Positions 38,902 to 51,064 of a stretch of DNA of 64,000 nt are shown here, in pieces. Every line of letters begins with the position of its first letter. The first letter of the stretch is position 1. The translations under genes and the position numbers were made by a program. The DNA is taken from contig CAVTAM010000002.1 in the NCBI GenBank assembly GCA_963732625.1, positions 31,807 to 95,806 on the forward strand, read 5' to 3'. The notes under the pieces are model-generated. The model worked only from the letters and a program-made list of their open reading frames with translations, made no database searches and had not been told where the DNA came from. The DNA comes from an uncultured beta proteobacterium (lineage in GTDB: Bacteria; Pseudomonadota; Gammaproteobacteria; Burkholderiales; Burkholderiaceae_C).

Positions 38902-39378
38902 TCAGGCGGCTTTCTTCAAAAGCTTGACGGCTTTGAGGACTTCGTCCACATGGCCAGCGACCTTGATGCCGCGCCACTCGCCGCGCAGCGTGCCGCCGGC
39001 GTCGATCAGGAAGGTGCTGCGCTCGATGCCCTTGACCTTCTTGCCGTACATGATCTTGTTCTTGACCACGCCGAACATGTGACACAACTTTTCTTCTGTG
39101 TCGGCGATCAGCTCGAAAGGCAACTCGAGGTTGGCCTTGAACTTTTCGTGCGAGGCCATGTTGTCGCGCGACACGCCGAGGATCAGCGCGCCGGCCTTGA
39201 CGAAATCCTTGTAGCGATCGCGGAATTGCATCGCTTCGGTGGTGCAGCCGGGCGTGTGGTCCTTCGGGTAGAAGTACAGCACGACCGCCTGGCCGCGGAA
39301 GGTATCGGGCCCGATCTTCAGGCCGCCTGTGGCGACGGCTTCAAACTCGGGCAGGGGTTTGTTGATGGCTGGCGTCAT
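38902..39378 (-). CDS. bcp: Thiol peroxidase / peroxiredoxin Bcp
   Basis: ORF 38902..39378. VVLYFYPKDHTPGCTTEA active-site motif. Confidence 0.9.
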   Translation of the reverse strand: MTPAINKPLPEFEAVATGGLKIGPDTFRGQAVVLYFYPKDHTPGCTTEAMQFRDRYKDFVKAGALILGVSRDNMASHEKFKANLELPFELIADTEEKLCHMFGVVKNKIMYGKKVKGIERSTFLIDAGGTLRGEWRGIKVAGHVDEVLKAVKLLKKAA

Positions 39379-39489
39379 GAGGTGCTGAAAGCTCGTGTTG
39401 CCTGCGGTTGCAAGCGCGGTGGCGAATTATAAAGGCTAGGATAGAGCGGGCCGCCGCTGTCCCACTACCTGGGGCCAAGGCCCGCCGAT

Positions 39490-39870
39490 TCAATCGGCAA
39501 GTGCCGGCAACAAGGCCGCAATCACCGATCGGCCCTCGGCAGCGAGCACGTTGTAGGTGCGGCAGGCCGCGGCGGTGTCCATCGTTTCCAGGCCGATGCG
39601 CGCATCGATCAGGCGCCGGTACAACGCAGCCGAAACGAAGCGCAGGCGCGCGCCGCTGCCGAAGATCACCAGTTCCGGCTTGAGCGCAAGCAGCGGTTCG
39701 AAATGCTCTGCCGTGAGCGCGGCGTGATTCAACGCCGACCACGCTTGCACCTCGCCCTTCCACGGCACGAGCAAGCTGCCTTCGAAACGCTGATTGTTGA
39801 CCCACACGGCGCCGCTCTCGTGGCGCGAGATGGCGTTGCTGCCGGCGAAGGTGTCGGGCTGGAACTTCAT
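39490..39870 (-). CDS. Mth938/DUF498-domain protein (NDUFAF3-like)
   Basis: ORF 39490..39885, start likely at MKFQPDTF (39870). PELVIFGSGARLRF...GLETMDTAAACRTYNVLAAEGRSV is the family signature. Confidence 0.7.
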   Translation of the reverse strand: MKFQPDTFAGSNAISRHESGAVWVNNQRFEGSLLVPWKGEVQAWSALNHAALTAEHFEPLLALKPELVIFGSGARLRFVSAALYRRLIDARIGLETMDTAAACRTYNVLAAEGRSVIAALLPALAD

Positions 39871-39894
39871 GGGGCGTGTGTTCAAATTCTAGAC

Positions 39895-41127
39895 ATGAAG
39901 CCCGTTCTCAAGTCCAGCAAGCTCGCCAACGTCGGCTACGACATCCGCGGGCCGGTGCTCGACAAGGCGCGCCAGATGGAGGAAGAGGGCCACAAGATCA
40001 TCAAGTTGAACATCGGCAACATCGCCGCGTTCGGCCTGGAGCCGCCCGACGAGATCGTGCAGGACATGATCCGCAACCTCGGCTCGCAGGTGGCCGCGGG
40101 CTACACCGACAGCAAGGGCCTGTTCGCGCCGCGCAAGGCGGTGGTGCACTACACGCAGCAAAAACACGTGGCGGGGGTCGACGGTCGATGACGTCTACCT
40201 CGGCAACGGCGCCTCCGAGCTGATCGCGATGAGCATGAACGCGCTGCTCGACGCCGGCGACGAGGTGCTGATCCCGTCGCCGGACTATCCGCTGTACACC
40301 GCGGTGGTGTCGCTGTCGGGCGGCACGCCGGTGCACTACCAGTGCGACGAAGGCACGGGCTGGTTGCCCGACATCGCCGACATCAGGAAGAAGGTGACGC
40401 CGCGGACCAAGGCGATCGTCGTCATCAACCCGAACAACCCGACCGGCGCGCTGTACCCGGTGGAGTTGCTGCGCGAGATCGTCGAGGTGGCGCGCGCGCA
40501 CCAGTTGATCGTCGTCGCCGACGAGATCTACGACAAGACGCTGTACGACGGCGCCGAGCACACGAGCATCGCCTCGCTGGCCGACGACGTGCTGTACCGT
40601 CACCTTCAACGGCCTGTCGAAGAACTACCGCGCGTGCGGCTACCGCGCCGGCTGGATGGTGGTCTCGGGCGACAAGCGGCATGCGCGCGACTACATCGAG
40701 GGCCTGAACATGCTGGCCTCGATGCGCTTGTGCGCAAACACGCCGGGGCAGCTCGCGATCCAGACGGCGCTCGGCGGCTACCAGAGCATCAACGACCTGG
40801 TCGCGCCCGGCGGCCGCCTGTGCCGGCAGCGCGATCTGGCGTACGAGCTGCTGACGCAGATTCCGGGCGTGTCGCGTCGTCAAGCCGAAGGCGGCGCTGT
40901 ACATGTTCCCGCGCCTCGATCCGAAGCTCTACCCGGTCGCCGACGACCAGCAGTTCGCCTATGAACTGCTGGCCGAAGAAAAGGTGCTGATCGTGCAGGG
41001 CTCGGGCTTCAACGTGCCGGACAGCCAGCACTTTCGCGTCGTCTTTCTGCCGCACACCGACGACCTCACCGATGCGATCGGCCGCATCGCGCGCTTCCTC
41101 GATCACTACAGAAAACGACACTCATGA
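39895..41127 (+). CDS. alaA: Glutamate-pyruvate (alanine) aminotransferase AlaA. Three 1-nt insertions (about 40182, 40596, 40875).
   Basis: Four collinear frame segments reconstruct a full-length homolog of E. coli AlaA: MKPVLKSSKLANVGYDIRGPVL.. / ..DDVYLGNGASELI..INPNNPTGA.. / ..TFNGLSKNYRACGYRAGW..ASMRLCAN.. / ..KPKAALYMFPRLD... Confidence 0.9.
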
Positions 41128-42477
41128 TGAAACCGATTCAAGTCGGCCTGCTTGGCATCGGCACCGTCGGCAGCGGCACCTTTGCCGTGCTCGCGCGCAA
41201 CCAGGAAGAGATTCGCCGCCGCGCCGGCCGCGGCATCGAGATTGCGATGGTGGCCGACCTCGACACGGCGCGCGCCGAGAAGATCGTCGCCGGCCGCGCC
41301 AAGGTGGTCGCCGATGCGCGCGCGGTGATCGCCGACAAGAGCGATCGACATCGTCGTCGAGCTGATCGGCGGCTACGGCATCGCCAAGACGCTGGTGCTG
41401 GAAGCCATCGCCGCCGGCAAGCATGTCGTCACCGCCAACAAGGCGCTGCTCGCGGTGCATGGCAACGAGATCTTCGCCGCGGCGCAGAAGCAGCGCGTGA
41501 TGGTGGCCTTCGAGGCCGCGGTGGCCGGCGGCATCCCGATCATCAAGGCGCTGCGCGAGGGCCTGACGGCGAACCGCATCGAGTGGGTGGCCGGCATCAT
41601 CAACGGCACGACGAATTTCATCCTCTCGGAGATGCGCGCCAAGGGCTCGGACTTCGCGACGGTGCTGAAAGAAGCGCAGCGCCTCGGTTATGCCGAGGCC
41701 GACCCGACCTTCGACATCGAAGGTGTCGATGCGGCGCACAAGGCGACCATCCTGTCGGCGATCGCCTTCGGCGTGCCGGTGCAGTTCGACAAGGCGTATG
41801 TCGAAGGCATCACGAAGCTGCAGGCGGTGGACATCCGCTATGCCGAGCAGCTCGGCTACCGCATCAAGCTGCTCGGCATCACGCGCCGCCGTGACATGGG
41901 CATCGAGCTGCGCGTGCATCCGACGCTGATTCCGAGCAAGCGCCTGATCGCCAATGTCGAAGGCGCGATGAACGCCGTGCTCGTGCAGGCCGACGCCGTC
42001 GGCACGACGCTGTACTACGGCAAGGGTGCCGGCGCGGAACCGACGGCCAGCGCCGTGGTCGCAGACCTGGTGGACATCACCCGCCTGGCAACCGCCGACC
42101 CCGATCACCGCGTGCCGCACCTCGCGTTCCAGCCCGACGCGATGGCGGACACGCCGATCCTTGCGATCGAGCAGGTGGTCACCGCGTTTTACCTGCGCCT
42201 GGTCGTCGCCGACGAAGCCGGCGTGTTGTCGCGCATCACGACGATCCTCGCCGAGCACGAGATCTCGATCGATGCCGTGTTGCAGCGTGAATCGGCCGAA
42301 GGCGAGCGCCAGACCGACCTCATCATCCTGACGCACGACACCGTCGAAGGCCGCATGCGGCAGGCGCTGGCGAAGATGCAGGCGCTGCCGACGGTGCTGG
42401 CGCCGATCGTCTCCATCCGCAAGGAAGAGTTGGCTGAAGTACGTGGCTTCCCGCCGCGAGGAACACTCCATGCCTGA
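41124..42477 (+). CDS. hom: Homoserine dehydrogenase. One 1-nt insertion near 41343.
   Basis: The ATG at 41124 overlaps the alaA stop (ATGA). MMKPIQVGLLGIGTVGSG... continues in ORF 41395..42477 (..IDIVVELIGG..VVTANKALLA..AVAGGIPIIKAL.. and a C-terminal ACT domain). About 14 extra residues follow ..SIRKEEL. Confidence 0.9.
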
Positions 42478-43804
42478 AGTCCCGTCCTACGACGCGCTCT
42501 ACGACGCCCTCGAAACCGAGCGGCCGCTCGACTACAGCGTCAAGGCCGACAAAGCATCGTATGTGGAAGGCCTGCACAAGGTCGAGGGCATCAATCCCGC
42601 CGACGAGATGTTGCTGCAGATCAAGCGCGCCAAGGCCGGCGGCGTTTGGTTTTTTACCGGCCATCGCGGCGTCGGCAAATCAACCGAGCTGTTGCGCGTG
42701 GCGCATGAGCTTCGACAGGACAACCGCATCGTCGTCTTCGCCGACATGGGCCGGTACATGAACTTGGCCGACGAGATCAGTATCGAACTGCTGCTCCTGA
42801 CGATGACCTATGCCTTGTCGCTGGAAGCCGAGCGCTTGCTGGGCGCCAATCCGCTGGCGCGCGGATATGTCCAGCGCCTGAAAGATTTCTTCACCGGCAC
42901 GAAAGTGGAGTTGTCGGAACTGGGGTTGTCGGTGGGCACCGACGCGGCCAAAGCCGAGGCCAAGTTCCGCCTGCGTGACGACCCGGGCTTGCGCGAGCGT
43001 GTGGTCGAGGCGGCACAAGCTTCCTTGGGTGCGTTCGTGACCGATGTCCGAACCTATGTCGCCGACTTGCTCGCCAACCTGAACCTGGCACACCCGAAAC
43101 GAAAGGTCGTGCTTATCCTGGACTCGCTGGAGAAGTTGCGCATCAGCGGCACCGACGCGGAGCAGCGTTACGACGCCATCCAGAAGACCTTCGCCGTCTA
43201 TGCCGATCACCTGAAGTTCGACGGCATTTCGGTGGTCTACAGCATTCCGCCTTACTTGCCTTATCTGGTGCCGGGCATCGGCTCGTACTTCGGTGTCAGC
43301 GTGTGCACGTTGCCGCATGTCAAGGTGTTCGAGCGTCCGACGGCCGGTGCACCTCGCGACGCCCGACACCAGCCGGGTGTCGATTTCATGGTCGAGAGCC
43401 TGCGTCGTCGCTATGTGGCTTGCGAATCTGTGATCGATCGCTCACACCTCGAAGAGCTGGCCTTGGCGTCGAGCGGCAGTCTGCGCGACTTTTACCGCTT
43501 GGTGCGATCCCTGCGCACCAAGGCGCCACTGGCCAAAGAGCCGATTCCGATGCGCAATTCGAAGTGGACCGAGGCGGTGCAGAACGACTTGCGCAGCGAG
43601 ATGCCCCTGGCCCGTGAAGACATTGTCTGGCTCAAGGAAGTTCGGCTGTCGTTCGACACAGGCCTGCAGAAGCCCGAAGACCTTCCCAAGCTGGCGCGTA
43701 TGTTCGACAACAGCTTGATCCTCGGCTATCGCAACAGTCGTGAGTGGTGCGACGTGCACTACCTTCTGCGCCAGCAGGTTGACGACGCACCGGGGGCCGC
43801 CTGA
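42470..43804 (+). CDS. P-loop NTPase of unknown family (cassette gene 1)
   Basis: ORF 42443..43804. The ATG at 42470 follows GAGGA and overlaps the hom stop (ATGCCTGA). Walker A FFTGHRGVGKSTELL and a Walker-B-like KVVLILDSLEKL. I recognise no other domain. Confidence 0.6.
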   Translation: MPEVPSYDALYDALETERPLDYSVKADKASYVEGLHKVEGINPADEMLLQIKRAKAGGVWFFTGHRGVGKSTELLRVAHELRQDNRIVVFADMGRYMNLADEISIELLLLTMTYALSLEAERLLGANPLARGYVQRLKDFFTGTKVELSELGLSVGTDAAKAEAKFRLRDDPGLRERVVEAAQASLGAFVTDVRTYVADLLANLNLAHPKRKVVLILDSLEKLRISGTDAEQRYDAIQKTFAVYADHLKFDGISVVYSIPPYLPYLVPGIGSYFGVSVCTLPHVKVFERPTAGAPRDARHQPGVDFMVESLRRRYVACESVIDRSHLEELALASSGSLRDFYRLVRSLRTKAPLAKEPIPMRNSKWTEAVQNDLRSEMPLAREDIVWLKEVRLSFDTGLQKPEDLPKLARMFDNSLILGYRNSREWCDVHYLLRQQVDDAPGAA

Positions 43805-43824
43805 GACGGGCTGCCCTGCCAGCG

Positions 43825-44433
43825 ATGAGCCAGGACGACTTCTACGCTGCGGCCGATACTCAGAGCGCTGACTCGGTATGGGCCGAGTTCAACCTGCACT
43901 TGCAACGCAGCAAGGGCTTCTGCCTGGTGTTTCTTTGCTCCGACTCGCCGCGCACGCTCGAATGGTTGCGCGTGCGTCTGGATGACACGTGGACGTGGCG
44001 CACGGCGCCGTTGGTGCTGCTGAGGCCCGAGTCGGCTTCGGGGGCTGCGCGGGAAATTCTTCTGCGCCTTCAACAGGAGGTGGGCGACCGTCCCGCGGTG
44101 CGCTCGCCTGTGTGGATCGATCTGGCGACGGTGGACAGCGCGCAAGGGCACGACTGGAACACCGCTCGCGGTGAAGTGATGTCGCGCCTGAATGAGTGGC
44201 GCAGTTGGCTGCAGGCGGAATTCAAGCGCCCCCTGGTCTTTGCGTTGCCGTTGGTTTGGCGGCGTCGAATGGCGCAGGTGGCGCCCGATTTGTGGCACGT
44301 GCGCACGTACAGCGCGGCAGTGGCGCATCTGCCCGCCATCGAGGCAAGAGACAGCGGGCCGCAGCATGCGGCGATCGGCGAGGCGCTGGATCGCCTGGCT
44401 CATCACGGCTCGCGTTCCGAGGCGTTGGAATAG
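43825..44433 (+). CDS. Hypothetical protein (cassette gene 2), possibly the N-terminal domain of the downstream repeat protein
   Basis: ORF 43825..44433. It is in the same reading frame as ORF 44446.., separated only by TAG (44431-44433) and four codons. No motif recognised with certainty. Confidence 0.5.
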   Translation: MSQDDFYAAADTQSADSVWAEFNLHLQRSKGFCLVFLCSDSPRTLEWLRVRLDDTWTWRTAPLVLLRPESASGAAREILLRLQQEVGDRPAVRSPVWIDLATVDSAQGHDWNTARGEVMSRLNEWRSWLQAEFKRPLVFALPLVWRRRMAQVAPDLWHVRTYSAAVAHLPAIEARDSGPQHAAIGEALDRLAHHGSRSEALE

Positions 44434-44445
44434 GCTGGCTCGACC

Positions 44446-46195
44446 GTGCAGTCATTGCTCGAACGCGGGGATGCGGCGTCCGCGCTGGCGTTGGCGCAAG
44501 GCATGGTGGCGAGGTCGCGTGGTGACCTCGATACCGGCACCAAGCCAGGGACTCGCCGCGATCTGTCGGTGAGTCTGAACAAGCTGGGCGATGCGCAGCG
44601 CGACGCCGGGCAAACCGGCGACGCGCTGGCGGCGTACCGCGAGAGCTTGGAGATCAGCCGCGAGCTGCGGCGCAACTCGGCGACAGCCCGGCGTGCTGCG
44701 CGACCTGTCGGTGAGCCTTGAGAAGCTGGGCAATGCGCGGCGCGGCGCAGGGCAAACCGGCGAGGCGCTGGCCGCGTACCGGGAGAGCCTGGAGATCAGA
44801 CGCGAGCTGCGGCGCCAACTCGGCGACAGCCCCGGCGTGCTGCGCGATCTGTCGGTGAGTCTGAGCAAGCTTGGCGATGCGCAGCGCGACGCCGGGCGAA
44901 CCGGCGACGCGCTGGCGGCGTACCGGGAGAGCTTGGAGATCAGCCGCGAGCTGCGGCGCCAACTCGGCGACAGCCCGGGTGTGCTGCGCGATCTGTCGGT
45001 GAGCCTTGAGAAGCTGGGCAATGCGCGGCGCGGCGCCGGGCAAACCGGCGAGGCGCTGGTCGCGTACCGCGAGAGCCTGGAGATCAGCCGCGAGCTGCGG
45101 CGCCAACTCGGCGACAGCCCCGGCGTGCTGCGCGATCTGTCGGTGAGCCTGAACAAGCTGGGTGATGCGCAGCGCGACGCCGGGCAAACCGGCGAGGCGC
45201 TGGCCGCGTACCGCGAGAGCCTGGAGATCGGCCGCGAGCTGCGGCGCCAACTCGGCGACAGCCCGGGTGTGCTGCGCGATCTGTCGGTGAGTCTGGTCAA
45301 GCTGGGCGATGCGCAGAGCGATGCCGGGAAAGCCGGCGAGGCGCTGGCAGCGTACCGGGAGAGCCTGGAGATCAGCCGCGAGCTGCGGCGCCAACTCGGC
45401 GACAGCCCCGGCGTGCTGCGCGATCTGTCGGTGAGTCTGGTCAACGTGGGTGATGTGCAGAGCGATGCCGGGCAAGCCGGCGAGGCGCTGGCAGCGTACC
45501 GGGAGAGCCTGGAGATCAGCCGCGAGCTGCGGCGCCAACTCGGCGACAGCCCCGGCGTGCTGCGCGATCTGTCGGTGAGTCTGGTCAAGCTGGGCGACGC
45601 GCAACACGACGCAGGGCAAGCCGGCGAGGCGCTGGCCGCGTACCGCGAGAGCCTGGAGATCGGCCGCGAGCTGCGGCGCCAACTCGGCGACAGCCCGGGT
45701 GCGCTGCGCGATCTGTCGGTGAGCTTGATCCGGCTGGGCGATGCGCAGAGCGATGCCGGGAAAGCCGGCGAGGCGCTGGCAGCGTACCGGGAGAGCCTGG
45801 AGATCAGCCGCGAGCTGCGGCGCCAACTAGGCGACCGCCCCGGCGTCCTGCGCGATCTGTCGATGAGCCTTGAGAAGCTGGGCGATGCGCAGCGCGACGC
45901 CGGGCCAGCCGGCGAAGCGCTGGCCGCGTACCGGGAGAGCCTGGAGATCAGGCGCGAGCTGCGGCGCCAACTCGGCGACAGCCCTGGCGTGCTCGACGAT
46001 TTGGCGGTGAGCTTGGAGCGGATTGCCGCGTTTGGTGGGGCTGGCGCTGATGCGCCGGCGTTGATTGCGGAGGCGGTGGCGCTGCGTGAGCGCTTGGCGC
46101 AAGCGTTTGCAGGGGTAGAGCGCTGGCACAAGCGCTTGGCCGTGGCACGATCGATTCAGCAGCGAATTCAACAGCCAACCTCGAAGGTGACGTAG
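44446..46195 (+). CDS. TPR-like helical-repeat protein, about 10.5 tandem 48-aa units (cassette gene 3). Two 1-nt deletions (about 44673 and 44689).
   Basis: The frame of ORF 44446..44721 joins ORF 44591..46195. The unit LGDSPGVLRDLSVSLxKLGDAQxDAGxxGEALAAYRESLEIxRELRRQ resembles kinesin-light-chain-type TPRs but is 48 aa long. GTG start with no obvious Shine-Dalgarno. Confidence 0.7.
44556..46010 (+). repeat. Tandem 144-bp coding repeat array (about 10 units)
   Basis: The CTCGGCGAC unit marker recurs at 44819, 44963, 45107, 45251, 45395, 45539, 45683, 45827 and 45971, an exact 144-bp period. Units are near-identical at the DNA level. Confidence 0.95.
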
Positions 46196-47651
46196 TTGCG
46201 ATACCTCAGACGCGCGGCGACACAACCGAGCGGGCGTTCTGCGACATCCTGCTCGAAGGCCTCGCGCCCGATGGCGGCTTGTACATGCCGGTTTCGTACC
46301 CGCAGGTCAATGCTGCGACGCTCGCGCGTTGGCGCGATCTGCCGTATGCCGACCTGGCGTTCGAGATCCTCTCGCTCTACATCGACGACATTCCTGCCGA
46401 CGATCTGCGTGCGATTTGCCGGCGCGTGTATTCAAAGGCGATCTTCGGCACCGACGCGATCACGCCGCTGAAGCCGCTCGACAACGGCGTCGCGCTGGTT
46501 GCCTTGTCCAACGGCCCGACGCTCGCCTTCAAGGACATGGCGATGCAGCTGCTCGGCGCGCTGTTCGAATACGAGCTGGCGCGCCGCGGTGCAAACGCTG
46601 AACATCCTCGGCGCGACGTCGGGCGACACCGGCAGCGCGGCCGAGTACGCGATGCGCGGCAAGCGCGGCATCAACGTCTTCATGCTGAGCCCGAACGGCC
46701 GCATGAGCCCATTCCAGCAGGCACAGATGTTCAGCCTGCAGGACGCCAACATCCACAACCTCGCGGTCGAGGGCGTGTTCGACGATTGCCAGGACATCGT
46801 CAAGGCGGTCGGCAACGATCTGCCGTTCAAGCGCACGCATCGCATCGGCACGGTGAACTCGATCAACTGGGCGCGGCTGATGGCGCAGGTCGTGTACTAC
46901 TTTGCGGCGTACTTCATGACCCCAAGCTCAGCTTCGCTTCGCGGCCCCCCGAGGGGGCGTCGCCGCCTTGGGGCGGCCCGGCGGCGGCGGGCAAGGCGGA
47001 GCAGGTGGACTTCGCCGTGCCGAGCGGCAACTTCGGCAACATCTGCGCCGGCCATGTCGCGCGCATGATGGGCCTGCCGATCGGGCACCTCATCTGCGCG
47101 ACCAACGAGAACGACGTGCTCGACGAGTTCTTCCGCAGCGGCGTCTACCGCCCACGCGGTGCGGCCAGCAGACACACGAGACCTCGAGCCCGTCGATGGA
47201 TATTTCCAAGGCGAGCAACTTCGAGCGCTTCGTGTTCGACCTGCTCGGCCGCGACGGCGCGCGCATCAAGCAGCTCTTCACGCAGCCGAGCTTCACGTTG
47301 ACGCCACAAGAACACGCGCGCGTCGCCGAATTCGGCTTCGTCTCCGGCCGCAGCACCCATGCCGACCGCCTGGCGACGATCCGCGAGACGTGGCAGCGCT
47401 CGCAGACGGTGATCGACACGCACACCGCCGACGGCTTGAAGGTCGCGCGCCAGCACCAGCGCGCCGGCGTGCCGATGCTCGTGCTCGAAACCGCGCTGCC
47501 GGCGAAGTTCGCGGCAACGATCCGCGAGGCGCTCGGCCGAGAGCCCGATCGGCCAGCCGGATTCGAAGGGATCGAGAACCTACCCAAGCGCTTCACCGTA
47601 CTGCCGGCCGATGTCAGCGTCATCAAGCGCTACATCGAAACCCATGTCTAG
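46196..47651 (+). CDS. thrC: Threonine synthase. Four frame changes (about 46209, 46590, 46915-46995, 47168).
   Basis: The TTG at 46196 directly follows the TAG of the repeat gene and is preceded by GAAGGTGA. Segments MRYL/STRGDTTERAFCDILLEGLAPDGGLYMP..SNGPTLAFKDMAMQLLG / TLNILGATSGDTGSAAEYA..INWARLMAQVVYYF / VDFAVPSGNFGNICAGHVARMMGLPI..ATNENDVLDEFF / THETSSPSMDISKASNFERF.. reconstruct ThrC. Confidence 0.85.
46920..46973. repeat. REP-like GC-rich palindrome embedded in the thrC reading frame
   Basis: ccccaagctcagcttcgcttcgcggccccccgagggggcgtcgccgccttgggg has an outer stem ccccaag/cttgggg and an inner stem gccccc/gggggc. It is homologous to the reverse complement of 16005-16055. It occupies the short linker between YYF.. 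and ..VPSGNFGN of ThrC. Confidence 0.55.
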
Positions 47652-48879
47652 CCTATTGCCGCTTGACGAAGCGCTGGCGCGTTTGATCGATGGCGCGCAC
47701 GCGGCGCGCATCACTGACACCGAAGCCGTCTCCACCTTCGACGCGCTCGGCCGCGTGCTGGCGCAAGACGTGGTCTCGCCGATCGACGTGCCGCCGCAGG
47801 ACAACACGTCGATGGATGGCTATGCGCTGCGCGCCGCCGACGTTCGCACCGCCGGCACGGTGCTGCCGGTGTCGCAGCGCATCGCGGCCGGGCATGTCGG
47901 CGCCGCGTTGCTGTCCGGAACAGCCGCGCGCATCTTTACCGGCGCACAGGTGCCCGCAGGCGCCGACGCGATCGTGATGCAGGAACAGTGCGAGCTGGCG
48001 GGCGACAACAGCGTGCGCGTCAACGCTGTGCCGCAAGCAGGGCAGTGGATTCGCCGCCGCGGTGAAGACGTGCGCGCTGGCTCGACGGTGCTGGCGCGCG
48101 GTACGCGCATCACACCGCAGGCGCAGGGCCTTGCTGCCACGGTCGGCGCCGCCGCGCTGCAAGTCGTGCGCCGGCCGCGCGTCGCGCTGTTCTCCACCGG
48201 CGACGAACTCGTCATGCCCGGCACCGTGGCGCCGCAGGACCTGCCGCCGGGTGCCATCTACAACTCCAACCGCTACACGCTGCGCGGTCTGCTGCAAGCC
48301 GCGGGTTGCGAGGTCACCGATCTCGGCATCGTGCCGGATCAGCTCGACGCCACACGCGAGGCATTGCGTACCGCGGCGAAAGACAATGACCTGATCCTCA
48401 CCTCCGGCGGTGTCTCCGTCGGCGAGGAGGATCACATCCGCCCCGCGCTCGATGCCGAAGGCCGCGTCGCGTTGTGGCAGGTCGCCATCAAACCCGGCAA
48501 GCCGCTGGCGTTCGGCGCGGTGCGCCGCGATGGGACCAGCGAGGCGCTGTTCGTCGGCCTGCCCGGCAACCCGGTGTCGAGTTTCGTGACCTTCCTTCTT
48601 GCCGTGGCGCCGCTGTTGCGCGCACTGCAAGGCGCCGACGCGGCGCTGCCGCGCGCGTTGCCGATGCGCGCCGACTTCGACTGGGCGCGCCCGGACAAGC
48701 GCCGCGAATTCCTGCGCGTGCGTTGCAATGCAGACGGCGGGCTCGACCTGTTCGCCAACCAGAGTTCGGGCGTGCTCACCTCGGCGGTGTGGGCCGACGG
48801 CCTGCTCGACAACCCGCCGCTGCAGCCGATCGCGCGTGGCGACAGCGTGCGCTACCTGCCGATGAGCGCGCTGATCTGA
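47644..48879 (+). CDS. moeA: Molybdopterin molybdenumtransferase MoeA (copy 2)
   Basis: In ORF 47611..48879. The ATG at 47644 overlaps the thrC stop (ATGTCTAG). MSSLLPLDEALARL..PPQDNTSMDGYAL..FSTGDEL..TSGGVSVGEEDH..LPGNPVS. Confidence 0.9.
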   Translation: MSSLLPLDEALARLIDGAHAARITDTEAVSTFDALGRVLAQDVVSPIDVPPQDNTSMDGYALRAADVRTAGTVLPVSQRIAAGHVGAALLSGTAARIFTGAQVPAGADAIVMQEQCELAGDNSVRVNAVPQAGQWIRRRGEDVRAGSTVLARGTRITPQAQGLAATVGAAALQVVRRPRVALFSTGDELVMPGTVAPQDLPPGAIYNSNRYTLRGLLQAAGCEVTDLGIVPDQLDATREALRTAAKDNDLILTSGGVSVGEEDHIRPALDAEGRVALWQVAIKPGKPLAFGAVRRDGTSEALFVGLPGNPVSSFVTFLLAVAPLLRALQGADAALPRALPMRADFDWARPDKRREFLRVRCNADGGLDLFANQSSGVLTSAVWADGLLDNPPLQPIARGDSVRYLPMSALI

Positions 48880-49195: not shown

Positions 49196-51064
49196 ATGAC
49201 CACGACCCCTCTGCCTTTTCCGCACGCCACGTCCACGCCGGTGGGCCCGGTGGTGCCGTTGCCGGTGGGCGTGCGCATCGACCGCTTCGTCGTCGAGCAG
49301 ACGCTGCACCAGGGGCCGCATGGTTTTGCCTACCGCGTGCGCGAGCCGGGCCACCAGCAGCCGCTGGTGCTGATCGAATGTTTCCCGCGCGCGCTGGCCA
49401 TCCGCCAGCCGGACGGTGCCGTGCGCGCGCGCCAGGCCGGCGACGCGATCGCGCTGTCGGTGGTCTGCGAGGCCTTCGTGCAGGACGCGCGCGCGCTGGC
49501 GGTGGTCGAGCATCCCGGTGTGATCAAGGTCTTCGGCGTCATCAACGCCAACCGCACGGTCTACCGGCTGATGCCTTACATCGAAGGGCAGACGCTCGAA
49601 GAGCAGCGCCTGGAGCGCTCCGACGCGCCCACCGTCGGTGGCCTGGTGCGCCTGTACGACAAGCTGCTCGATGCGCTCGAGGCGCTGCACAAGGCCGGCT
49701 TCGTGCACGGTCTCGTGCAGCCGGACCAGATCCTGATGAAGGCCGACGACAACGCGCCGCTGCTGCTGGGCATGGACGGCGTGGCGATGGAACTCGGCGA
49801 GATGACGATGAGCCCGTGGGCCGCGCCGGAGCAGCAGCAGACGACGCGCTTCGAGCGCATCAACGCCTCGGCCGACCTCTACATGCTGGCGGCGACGATG
49901 TGCTTTGCCGCCACCGGCGCCGCGCCGCCGCGCGCCGAGGAGCGCTTGGCCAGCGGCGCCTGGGACCCGGCCGCGCTGCTCGCCGACGTGCCGCTCGGCG
50001 GCGGCGATTCGGTGGCGCTGCGCGACGCTTTCATCCAGGCCGTGGTGGCATCGCTGGCGCTGGCCGCGCCGGCGCGCCCGCACAGCGCCGACGACGTGCG
50101 CCACATCCTGCATCCGCAAGGCCGCAGCGCCTTCGTCGCCAGCACCGGCCCGGCGCCGTTGTGGGTCGGCGAGGTGCCGGATCGAGATTCGCAATGGGAG
50201 ACGCTCGAAGGCATGAGCGGCCCGCTGCCCTTGCGCGACAACGTCGACAACATCGACACGCAGATCGTCATGCAGCCGGCGGTCGAGCCGGGCCTGCCGG
50301 CCGAGCCGCCGCGCGCGGTGCGTCAGGCGGTGCGTGCCGAGCCGAGCCTCGACCCGGCAGCGATGTCCGGTCGCCGGGCGGCCGATGTCGGCGTGCGGAC
50401 CCAGCGCCGCGGCCTGACGATGACGCTGGTGGCGGCTGCGGCCACCGCCCTCGCGGCGCTGGTCTGGTGGAGCCAGACGCCGCCCTCGAACCTGGCGCTG
50501 CCGGCGTCGGCGCCGCCCGTTGAAGTGATCCCGCCGGTGGCGCCGCCCGCGGCGCCACCGGTTGCGCAAGCCACGCCGCCGGCGGCGGCGCCGATTGCAG
50601 TGCCGGCCGCACGCGAAGAGCCCAAGCAAGCGCCCGTGCCGACAACGCAAGCCAAAGCCGAGGCCGAACCCGCACCGCCGCCGCCCGTGCCGGCGGTCGC
50701 ACCACCGGCCGCGGTGCCGCCCGCGGTGGTGCCGGCGAAGGTGGCAACACCGGCGGCGCCGGCACCAGCACCCGCCGCGGCGGTGGTGAAAGCCGCGCCG
50801 CCGAGCGCGCCGGCGCCGAAGGCGGCTGCGGCACCGGTCAAAGCCGTGCCCAAGCCGGCAGCCGCCAAAGCCGTGGCCAAGAGCAACGGCAAGCCGGCGC
50901 CTGCCGCGCCCAAAGCCGCGCAGCGCACGGTGCCCCCTGAAACGCTGTGCGGCAACCGCACGCAGTTCGCCTACCTGTACTGCATGCAGGAGCAATGCGC
51001 GCGCGCCGCGCAGCGCAACAGCGCGCAGTGCACGGCTCTGCGGCGCACGGGTGAAATCAGATGA
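49196..51064 (+). CDS. Membrane-anchored protein-kinase-like protein (predicted pseudokinase) with a Pro/Ala-rich region and a C-terminal 4-Cys motif
   Basis: ORF 49196..51064. Kinase-like fold markers are present (..YRLMPYIEGQTLEE.., ..SPWAAPEQ.., ..DLYMLAATMCF..). Catalytic positions are replaced: VLIE for VAIK, HGLVQPDQ for HRDLKPxN, GMDG for DFG. TM helix LTMTLVAAAATALAALVWW, about 150 aa of P/A/K-rich sequence, and the end CGNRTQFAYLYCMQEQCARAAQRNSAQC. Confidence 0.65.
   Translation: MTTTPLPFPHATSTPVGPVVPLPVGVRIDRFVVEQTLHQGPHGFAYRVREPGHQQPLVLIECFPRALAIRQPDGAVRARQAGDAIALSVVCEAFVQDARALAVVEHPGVIKVFGVINANRTVYRLMPYIEGQTLEEQRLERSDAPTVGGLVRLYDKLLDALEALHKAGFVHGLVQPDQILMKADDNAPLLLGMDGVAMELGEMTMSPWAAPEQQQTTRFERINASADLYMLAATMCFAATGAAPPRAEERLASGAWDPAALLADVPLGGGDSVALRDAFIQAVVASLALAAPARPHSADDVRHILHPQGRSAFVASTGPAPLWVGEVPDRDSQWETLEGMSGPLPLRDNVDNIDTQIVMQPAVEPGLPAEPPRAVRQAVRAEPSLDPAAMSGRRAADVGVRTQRRGLTMTLVAAAATALAALVWWSQTPPSNLALPASAPPVEVIPPVAPPAAPPVAQATPPAAAPIAVPAAREEPKQAPVPTTQAKAEAEPAPPPPVPAVAPPAAVPPAVVPAKVATPAAPAPAPAAAVVKAAPPSAPAPKAAAAPVKAVPKPAAAKAVAKSNGKPAPAAPKAAQRTVPPETLCGNRTQFAYLYCMQEQCARAAQRNSAQCTALRRTGEIR

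Follow-up and report, generated by a model that had tools for sequence, protein, structure and literature searches.

ATPases of the STAND and AAA+ classes that carry tetratricopeptide repeats (TPRs) are classic regulators, MalT among them. In the MoxR-vWA ternary conflict systems, an inactive NTPase-like domain termed iSTAND forms the constant part of a putative sensor (PMC7159879). Fungal NLR proteins carry WD, ANK, or TPR repeats with an internal identity of at least 85-90%, polymorphic repeat numbers, and few variable positions, a pattern that has been read as a sign of rapidly diversifying recognition (PMC4986451), and defence hotspots flanked by core genes occupy fixed sites that are mostly empty and otherwise hold variable cargo (PMC10121019). 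Here we analyse a cassette that lies between hom (homoserine dehydrogenase) and thrC (threonine synthase) in a 64,000-nt stretch of DNA from an uncultured beta proteobacterium (contig CAVTAM010000002.1). This whole stretch, termed the window, supplies all window coordinates given below, and L-numbers such as L001 and L120 denote the contigs and loci that were compared with it. With about even confidence, we read the cassette as an accessory two-gene, ATP-dependent TPR sensor switch housed within the hom-thrC operon and having a conflict- or defence-type role; we found no literature that describes this pair or any cargo at the hom-thrC junction.

An earlier note on this DNA had described about 3.7 kb of foreign-looking coding sequence, divided among three genes, that separates hom from thrC in a same-strand array. 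This non-threonine block is indeed present, with flanks identified by Pfam, and it resolves into two genes instead of three. An exact look-up of gene 1 recovered an independent 3.8-kb ENA contig (L001) in which an identical gene 1 is followed by a single 790-aa open reading frame (ORF); base-by-base comparison of this contig with the window across the cassette found two substitutions and three one-base gaps. The TAG at 44431-44433 of the window is TCG in L001 and GCG in L120, both of which read through, and the two 1-nt deletions suspected near 44673 and 44689 were found at 44672 and 44686, each being a C lost relative to L001. What had been called genes 2 and 3 is one ORF in both L001 and L120, such that the stop and the frameshifts belong to the window only. 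Relatives for which sufficient sequence was available, L002 among them, likewise all have the N-terminal domain fused to the TPRs (some of these ORFs are cut by the contig end), and the cassette consists of two ORFs in L001, L105, and L114. We refer to these ORFs as gene 1 and gene 2.

Inspection of gene 1 bears out the claimed Walker A sequence, GHRGVGKST (residues 64-72), and the Walker-B-like VVLILDSLEK, in which LILDSLE spans residues 215-221. Across 111 gene 1 homologues, G64, G69, K70, D218, and R339 are invariant, as are the columns of S334 and G336, whereas E221 is invariant among 16 homologues and at least 90% conserved among the 111; an SGSxR motif at residues 335-339 is taken to be sensor 2, as in this clade. 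A search found 107 homologues of full-length type. An AlphaFold2 (AF2) model derived from the 111 homologues (pLDDT 90.6, pTM 0.91) predicts a helical insert of about 100 residues (105-207), a lid, and a C-terminal winged-helix-like domain. Foldseek placed this model closest to Cdc6/Orc1 (2qby, E 9e-7), with ORC/Cdc6 proteins forming the top matches (E 9e-7 to 5e-5); the other best matches comprised Drosophila and yeast ORC/Cdc6, 7jgr, 1w5s, and the archaeal ATPase SSO1545 (2fna), and lower ones RdrA of RADAR (8hra/8hr8), CED-4, NLRP3, BrxC (9zll), TnsC, and RuvB. On this predicted fold, gene 1 appears to encode a catalytically competent, ORC/Cdc6-like AAA+ ATPase. Family-level searches returned less: every Pfam match was sub-threshold (AAA_16 at 25.5 bits against a cut-off of 32.6, ATPase_2 at 21.4 against 33.2, nSTAND_NTPase5 at 17.8 against 34, and NPHP3_N at 15.1 against 24.8), no NCBIfam or PADLOC match was significant (in PADLOC-DB 2.0, mad8 reached E 0.006 and PtuA E 0.03), and sequence and profile searches of PDB chains with both cassette proteins gave P-loop-level matches (SRP receptor, DnaX) or nothing.

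Gene 2 begins with a domain that is predicted to adopt a five-stranded alpha/beta fold (AF2 model, pLDDT 88.5) and for which Foldseek returned NSF-D2, Vps4, CbbX, DnaC, Rif2, and ORC2 (E about 1e-4, TM-score 0.40-0.48). Because neither a glycine-rich loop nor a lysine follows the first strand (..VFLCSDSPRT..), this domain would be a pseudo-ATPase at best. The earlier note had likened it to a degenerate inactive-STAND-type module preceding TPRs; a predicted AAA+ core that lacks a Walker A motif agrees with this likeness as far as predicted fold is concerned. Its invariant motifs are W97, RLNExR (121-126), and APDLW..R (153-160), and it has no match in Pfam, NCBIfam, PADLOC, or PDB sequences. 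The possibility that gene 2 arose as a degenerate duplicate of gene 1 is unsupported, there being no homology between the two profiles in hhalign. When 1.84 billion cluster representatives were searched with its profile, the domain appeared in 1709 proteins, 899 of them at E<=1e-10; it stands at the N-terminus in all 150 family members listed, it runs on into TPRs in all ten of the long members sampled, and several members have TPR_MalT matches. A domain without a Pfam family thus defines at least 900 sequence clusters.

The remainder of gene 2 is dominated by the long TPR-like array that had been assigned to a third gene; its 48-aa repeats are confirmed, and they form part of gene 2. Pfam thresholds are exceeded by TPR_12 (125.8 bits, cut-off 30.1) as well as by TPR_2, TPR_1, TPR_8, and TPR_10. 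The array of the window contains ten exact-period units, each of 48 aa and not of 34 or 42 aa, with a mean nucleotide identity of 88.7%. Per-position counts show that amino-acid variation clusters at unit positions 16-17, 20-24, 27-28, and 42, which, from established TPR geometry, presumably fall in the second half of helix A and in the A-B turn. At these hypervariable positions, non-synonymous pairwise differences greatly outnumber synonymous ones, and several other codons vary synonymously only, selection being gauged here by crude counts of codon differences. In ten loci, arrays with the 144-nt period have a self-identity of 90-100%; those of other loci are degenerate, and lengths range from about 0.3 to 2 kb. 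This pattern indicates that the arrays are homogenised lineage by lineage while copy number changes, with the proviso that metagenome-assembled genomes (MAGs) are unreliable for repeats of this kind. The largest and most homogenised array seen belongs to the 998-aa gene 2 homologue of Acidovorax sp. GBBC 3334 (L105:9344-12340), where identity between neighbouring 144-nt units reaches 100% in a stretch of about 1.9 kb.

About 20 lineages of Burkholderiales have the cassette at this same junction. When one genome was scanned for each GTDB species, 23 loci with a gene 1 relative emerged, 16 of which have an aminotransferase gene and hom directly upstream; thrC and moeA follow downstream wherever the contig is long enough. 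The hosts of the cassette at this junction are Roseateles, Rubrivivax, Methylibium, Sphaerotilus, Polaromonas, and MAGs of Comamonadaceae and Burkholderiales, and the same gene order was seen in Acidovorax sp. GBBC 3334 and in two metagenome contigs (L113 and L114). Occupancy is nonetheless patchy. Among 80 metagenomic loci whose hom is 78-95% identical to that of the window, about 53 were long enough to judge, and only three of these carry the cassette; in the closest hom relatives (88-90% identity), hom is joined directly to thrC. The earlier note had held that the two genes are normally direct neighbours, and this is so: in 44 of 50 cassette-free loci they share 4 or 1 nt or are separated by no more than 13 nt, as in the typical junction ..GCGTGAAGTAC.., and because hom stop and thrC start are so closely spaced, the ancestral junction is predicted to be translationally coupled. 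The picture of a foreign block spliced into the operon therefore holds in part, since the cassette is accessory, foreign-looking, and absent from close hom relatives, but it is not a one-off, being found in some 20 lineages. The earlier note had also envisaged that the same genes might sit at hom-thrC throughout the order or, alternatively, might never co-occur beyond this genome; because the cassette is recurrent yet patchy, neither scenario applies, the pair recurring widely.

Small genes of other kinds also follow hom in some metagenomic loci. The insert that separates hom from thrC is a PIN (VapC-like) toxin gene in L072 (1359-1829) and a DUF2322 gene in L088 (7056-7373); in L048, an AbiEii-type toxin gene (2041-2727) follows hom, with no thrC in the remaining 2.9 kb of the contig. 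This variety of occupants marks the hom-thrC overlap as a recurrent insertion site. No ORF for a recombinase, transposase, or phage protein was found between hom and thrC.

Sequence comparison of the cassettes with their flanks shows poor congruence between the two. Between distinct cassette lineages, gene 1 is 29-86% identical, as against 76-95% for hom, and the gene 1 and hom distance matrices are poorly correlated (Mantel r = 0.16, p = 0.07). The hom of L015 is 88% identical to that of the window, yet for gene 1 its identity is about 42% with the window and 79% with Sphaerotilus. A single gene 1 version, about 30% identical to all others and yet located at the same site, is common to L075 and L089, and the hom of L075 falls within the Comamonadaceae. 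The gene 1 of the gammaproteobacterium Rheinheimera nests within the Burkholderiales clade and is 68% identical to that of Polaromonas. Tree neighbours do agree between hom and gene 1 for the two Polaromonas loci L005 and L006, for L010 and L013, and for the window with Roseateles.

Closely related alleles form a clear mosaic. L001 and the window are 99.95% identical across the cassette, whereas 14 of 83 flanking bases differ (flanks of 45 and 38 nt, about 80% identical). L120, which shares the flank of L001, diverges from the window by 16% in its hom flank and spacer; it differs by 0.3% over the first 921 nt of gene 1 and by 11% thereafter. Because L001 and L120 form such identity mosaics with respect to the window, we conclude from the alignments that cassette alleles recombine among strains. 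In the alignment of L120:1-2303 with window 42382-44680, a recombination breakpoint falls within gene 1 near window position 43390. Site-specific mobility, suggested by the contrast between cassette and flanks in L001, was considered as the main account and set aside, since this second breakpoint of L120, inside gene 1, fits ordinary homologous recombination. The overall pattern fits an accessory module that is under purifying selection in its catalytic core and changes rapidly in its recognition part.

The pair is also conserved across phyla away from the threonine genes, in Desantisbacteria (L108), Chthonomonadaceae (L024), L117, Polyangiaceae (L022), and Rheinheimera, with hhalign probabilities of 96.5% for L024 and 99.7% for L117 supporting the pairing. 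On the Desantisbacteria contig, the pair has two strong HEC-01 candidate defence systems and MNT/HepT as neighbours, and the relatives of the pair on that contig have no PADLOC match. In Rheinheimera, it has an LmuA-like trypsin protease gene upstream and a cluster encoding a Tse2 ADP-ribosyltransferase and ParDE downstream. The protease gene (L107:6971-7843; PADLOC LmuA of Lamassu, E 8e-9) shares the strand of the pair, from which 157 nt separate it, and its product may act as an effector there. A distant relative near CHAT, IS6 transposase, and integrase genes on an Acidisarcina plasmid was the sole match in the plasmid collection. In Chthonomonadaceae, Polyangiaceae, and L117, the pair sits among ordinary genes, and in the betaproteobacterial MAG L017 it lies at a locus without hom. 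A distant pair occurs in the cyanobacterial genus Hormoscilla (L118:6001-8903), where the ATPase is 27% identical to gene 1 and the partner joins a gene-2-like N-terminal domain (hhalign probability 83.5%) to TPRs and a C-terminal Sigma70_r4 helix-turn-helix (HTH).

If the cassette is a sensor switch, the TPR superhelix would bind a protein or peptide ligand, with the few variable positions in each unit setting specificity. The pseudo-ATPase domain of gene 2 may dock on the active ATPase of gene 1, by analogy with inactive subunits in ORC and clamp loaders, and ligand binding would control whether the hetero-complex assembles with ATP or switches its conformation. Output might be delivered by the gene 1 winged-helix domain, by sequestering the ligand, or through an unlinked effector. 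We favour a conflict or defence role because of how the cassette evolves, namely its patchiness, fast divergence, recombination, and repeat dynamics; in addition, toxin-antitoxin or defence genes neighbour the pair in three contexts outside the Burkholderiales. The defence role, the protection from deletion that the earlier note proposed, ligand sensing, co-transcription, and interaction of the two proteins are inferred, while the gene structure, predicted folds, motifs, site of insertion, patchiness, rapid divergence, recombination, and array dynamics are shown. A more ambitious version, which we hold only tentatively and think somewhat unlikely, is that the pair constitutes the core of an undescribed, widespread bipartite immune sensor, in which the ATPase would be gated by a pseudo-ATPase-TPR receptor whose repeats diversify as in fungal NLRs, and which was domesticated in Burkholderiales at a gene overlap within an essential biosynthetic operon, perhaps drawing on that position, for instance through coupling to the translation of thrC, for part of its output.

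Several observations weigh against a defence-type sensor. No effector domain was recognised in Pfam, NCBIfam, or PADLOC scans of either protein, as the earlier note had stated, and the search that it proposed for a named defence family gave no significant PADLOC match for gene 1 or for the N-terminal domain of gene 2; the only significant match was that of a generic TPR model to the array. The TM-scores of the gene 1 fold matches are low (0.33-0.49), and the AAA+-like call for the N-terminal domain of gene 2, which has no sequence homology to gene 1, comes from a predicted model. The hom tree is poorly resolved, such that part of its incongruence with gene 1 could be noise. The Burkholderiales neighbours are housekeeping genes and form no defence island, and the contexts in L117, L024, and L017 are metabolic. 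No relative was found in a scan of viral contigs, and PHROGs gave a weak P-loop match only (E 0.008). Finally, the HTH-bearing partner in Hormoscilla hints at transcriptional regulation for some versions of the module.

This last point leads to a rather unlikely alternative, in which the pair is a MalT/LAL-like signal-transduction ATPase, split in two, that serves regulation and is not involved in conflict. Its TPR partner would sense a metabolite or host protein, the winged helix of gene 1 would switch transcription or a host pathway, and the position in the operon would be incidental or loosely tied to amino-acid status. Besides the Hormoscilla protein, such a regulator accounts for the C-terminal winged-helix-like domain of gene 1, for the MalT-type plan of ATPase plus TPRs (with TPR_MalT matches in several family members), and for the retention of the pair across phyla, often amid metabolic genes. 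Pfam detects no HTH in the window proteins, however, and a regulator sits poorly with a distribution that is patchy even among close relatives, with extreme divergence and poor congruence with the flanks, and with the toxin-antitoxin and defence neighbours in three contexts; near-identical arrays of variable length, together with focused non-synonymous variation, are atypical for metabolite sensors. It is improbable that the cassette belonged to the operon from the start in the Comamonadaceae/Sphaerotilaceae group, was inherited vertically in a housekeeping role (for example, as a chaperone or assembly factor), was lost many times, and looks foreign only through fast evolution. Occupation of an identical site in about 20 lineages from many genera would be explained, as would the nearest-neighbour pairs that agree (L005/L006, L010/L013, and the window with Roseateles), the Comamonadaceae clade that is largely recovered in both trees, and the amelioration of cassette G+C to the host in each lineage. 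Set against these are the roughly 94% of informative close hom loci that have no cassette, the deep incongruence between hom and gene 1 in L015 and L075, the gammaproteobacterial copy nested within the clade, and the occurrence of the pair at another locus in L017.

A further explanation, which we consider quite unlikely, is a selfish or neutral hitch-hiker. Such an element would be kept between essential, coupled genes where only a precise deletion is tolerated and expression is guaranteed, and it would spread by homologous recombination via conserved flanks with little or no benefit to the host. The ancestral junction has no spacer, so that an imprecise deletion would be expected to damage hom or thrC; recombination mosaics and sharp changes in identity mark the cassette edges; no recombinase or transposase is present in or adjoining the cassette; and other occupants of the junction (PIN, AbiEii) are of addiction type. 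Yet both ORFs are intact and their catalytic motifs are kept across lineages that are 30-60% identical, which implies purifying selection, and the pair is maintained in other phyla away from hom-thrC, with no recognisable toxin-like activity that could enforce addiction.

Features of the locus in the window, with coordinates counted from the first nucleotide of the 64,000-nt stretch
Feature	Position	Strand	Evidence and remarks
hom (homoserine dehydrogenase), upstream flank	41124..42436	+	Pfam Homoserine_dh, ACT, NAD_binding_3; frameshifted in assembly
Spacer between hom and gene 1, ~30 nt	42437..42469	+	GAGGA ribosome-binding site; AGTAC at 5' end; differs by about 16% from L001/L120, adjoining gene 1 being 99.7-100% identical
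Gene 1, 444-aa predicted ORC/Cdc6-like AAA+ ATPase	42470..43804	+	AF2 model, Foldseek, conserved motifs
Gene 2, N-terminal domain, ~165 aa	43825..44334	+	Predicted AAA+-like alpha/beta fold without P-loop
Gene 2, linker, TPR array, and C-terminal cap	44335..46195	+	One ORF with 43825-44334 after repair; Pfam TPR_12
Tandem array of 144-nt (48-aa) TPR-like units	44557..46012	+	TRF, 10.1 copies, 89% matches
thrC (threonine synthase), downstream flank	46196..47651	+	Pfam Thr_synth_N, THR4_C; TTG start; frameshifted in assembly

The region from 39.7 to 49.1 kb reads, all on the + strand, aminotransferase, hom, cassette, thrC, moeA, and a ThiS/MoaD-family gene (by Pfam and ORFs). Its start sites are as previously described: the ATG of gene 1 at 42470 has a GAGGA 5' to it, and the TTG of thrC at 46196 adjoins a TAG, with GAAGGTGA within the last codons of the cassette. 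The lower G+C claimed for gene 1 was likewise found (61.5% against 66.9% in hom, with a G+C fraction at third codon positions, GC3, of 0.80 against 0.90), with GC3 falling below that of the flanks. The upstream boundary reads differently. The apparent extension of hom by about 14 residues, and its ATGCCTGA overlap with gene 1, arise because one base lost at 42429 removes the stop; hom ends in ...RKEEL[A/N/S]* in the nine relatives examined, a TGA precedes the gene 1 ATG by 31-32 nt in L001 and L120, and restoring the base probably places the true stop of the window at a TGA at about 42434-42436. A spacer of about 30 nt consequently separates hom from gene 1, where the earlier note had seen no intergenic scars. 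In the window, this spacer begins ..TGAAGTAC, which resembles the overlapping thrC start GTGAAGTAC of cassette-free loci (L120 has TGAAGAC), and the AGTAC at its 5' end is possibly a remnant of that ancestral start.

Many single-base deletions split the aminotransferase gene (alaA), hom, thrC, and gene 2 over several frames between 39700 and 47651 of the window. Relative to L001, single C losses are also found at 42429 and 46209; thrC reads MRYLRRAA... as assembled, and restoring the base at 46209 gives MRYLSTRG. All four deletions that can be checked against L001 (42429, 44672, 44686, and 46209) are lost C residues. Collectively, the indels look like homopolymer-type assembly error and not biology. 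A caution is accordingly in order, as the three genes and the hom extension of the record stem from a noisy assembly and near-identical contigs have neither. A consensus scan of 39141-48000 found no terminator-like or sigma-70 promoter-like site; this is weak evidence, consistent with a single transcript, and the cassette is most likely co-transcribed with the aminotransferase-hom-thrC operon.

Some further observations concern the cassette edges and the downstream region. A 10/12-nt direct repeat (TGGCTGAAGT / TGCCTGAAGT, at 42431-42440 and 42471-42480) brackets the hom-gene 1 spacer and is weaker in L001 and L120; direct repeats at the cassette edges are short and at roughly chance level. 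L003, L008, and L015 share a GGCACACT motif (TGGCACACT-like) 8-15 nt 5' of the gene 1 start, with a spacing unsuitable for a sigma-54 promoter. Downstream of the MoaD-like gene, where the earlier note had expected moaE and crcB, a 622-aa ORF (49196-51064) has weak matches to Ser/Thr protein kinases (Pkinase E 8e-7, below the Pfam cut-off).

Among the closest described systems are the antiviral STAND NTPases (Avs/AVAST, NLR-like), in that, as the earlier note had suggested, an NTPase is paired here with a helical-repeat sensor. The likeness extends to an NTPase with a lid and winged helix joined to a TPR-type array, to a patchy, fast-evolving distribution, and to the weak AAA_16, nSTAND5, and NPHP3_N matches and CED-4 and NLRP3 folds. 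A STAND protein is, however, a tripartite single polypeptide (effector, NOD, sensor), whereas here every locus has one ORF for the ATPase (444 aa) and another for the TPR protein (790 aa), the TPR protein has its own P-loop-less AAA+-like domain, and no effector domain was found. The best fold matches of gene 1 are ORC/Cdc6 proteins, and its STAND-type Pfam matches lie below cut-off. Because these family matches are sub-threshold and the tripartite architecture is absent, the cassette cannot be filed as a STAND NTPase, and membership in that class is not established. Should the sensor-switch reading be correct, the cassette would add a split, effector-less architecture to the bacterial NLR/STAND-like repertoire.

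With the ORC/Cdc6-type AAA+ proteins (RdrA and BrxC included), gene 1 shares a predicted AAA+ core, lid, and C-terminal winged helix, and its SGSxR resembles the sensor 2 of that clade. It departs from them in its low TM-scores (0.33-0.45), the lack of a family match at the sequence level, the helical insert of about 100 residues, and the TPR partner; unlike RADAR and BREX, it is accompanied by neither an RdrB deaminase nor BREX partner genes. The iSTAND ternary system resembles the cassette in having an inactive NTPase-like domain on a putative sensor protein, but in the cassette there is no match to MoxR or vWA, the neighbours are hom and thrC, and effector domains are lacking; because the MoxR and vWA partners are absent, the cassette is not an iSTAND system. 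No known toxin or antitoxin family was matched in Pfam, NCBIfam, or PADLOC scans of the two proteins, which leaves room for a novel toxin. The MalT/LAL STAND regulators combine an ATPase with a TPR-like sensor, as the cassette does, and the distant Hormoscilla relative has a Sigma70_r4/LuxR-type HTH; by contrast, neither window protein has a Pfam HTH, the module is split over two genes, and it is patchy and fast-evolving.

Fungal NLRs offer a parallel to the array, with near-identical repeats, varying copy number, and few variable positions per unit, although the cassette is a bacterial two-protein system with a 48-aa unit instead of 42 or 34 aa and no cell-death effector domain. As for location, the hom-thrC junction resembles the hotspots flanked by core genes in being a fixed, mostly empty site, its cargo being the pair, PIN, AbiEii, or DUF2322. 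It differs from them in being an intra-operon site where genes overlap by 4 nt or 1 nt, in having no integrase or mobile gene, and in being dominated by one type of cargo. An overlap of 1-4 nt between two essential, coupled genes serves, with no visible mobility gene, as a recurrent site for accessory cargo, an unusual niche that bears on how accessory and defence genes gain expression and resist loss.

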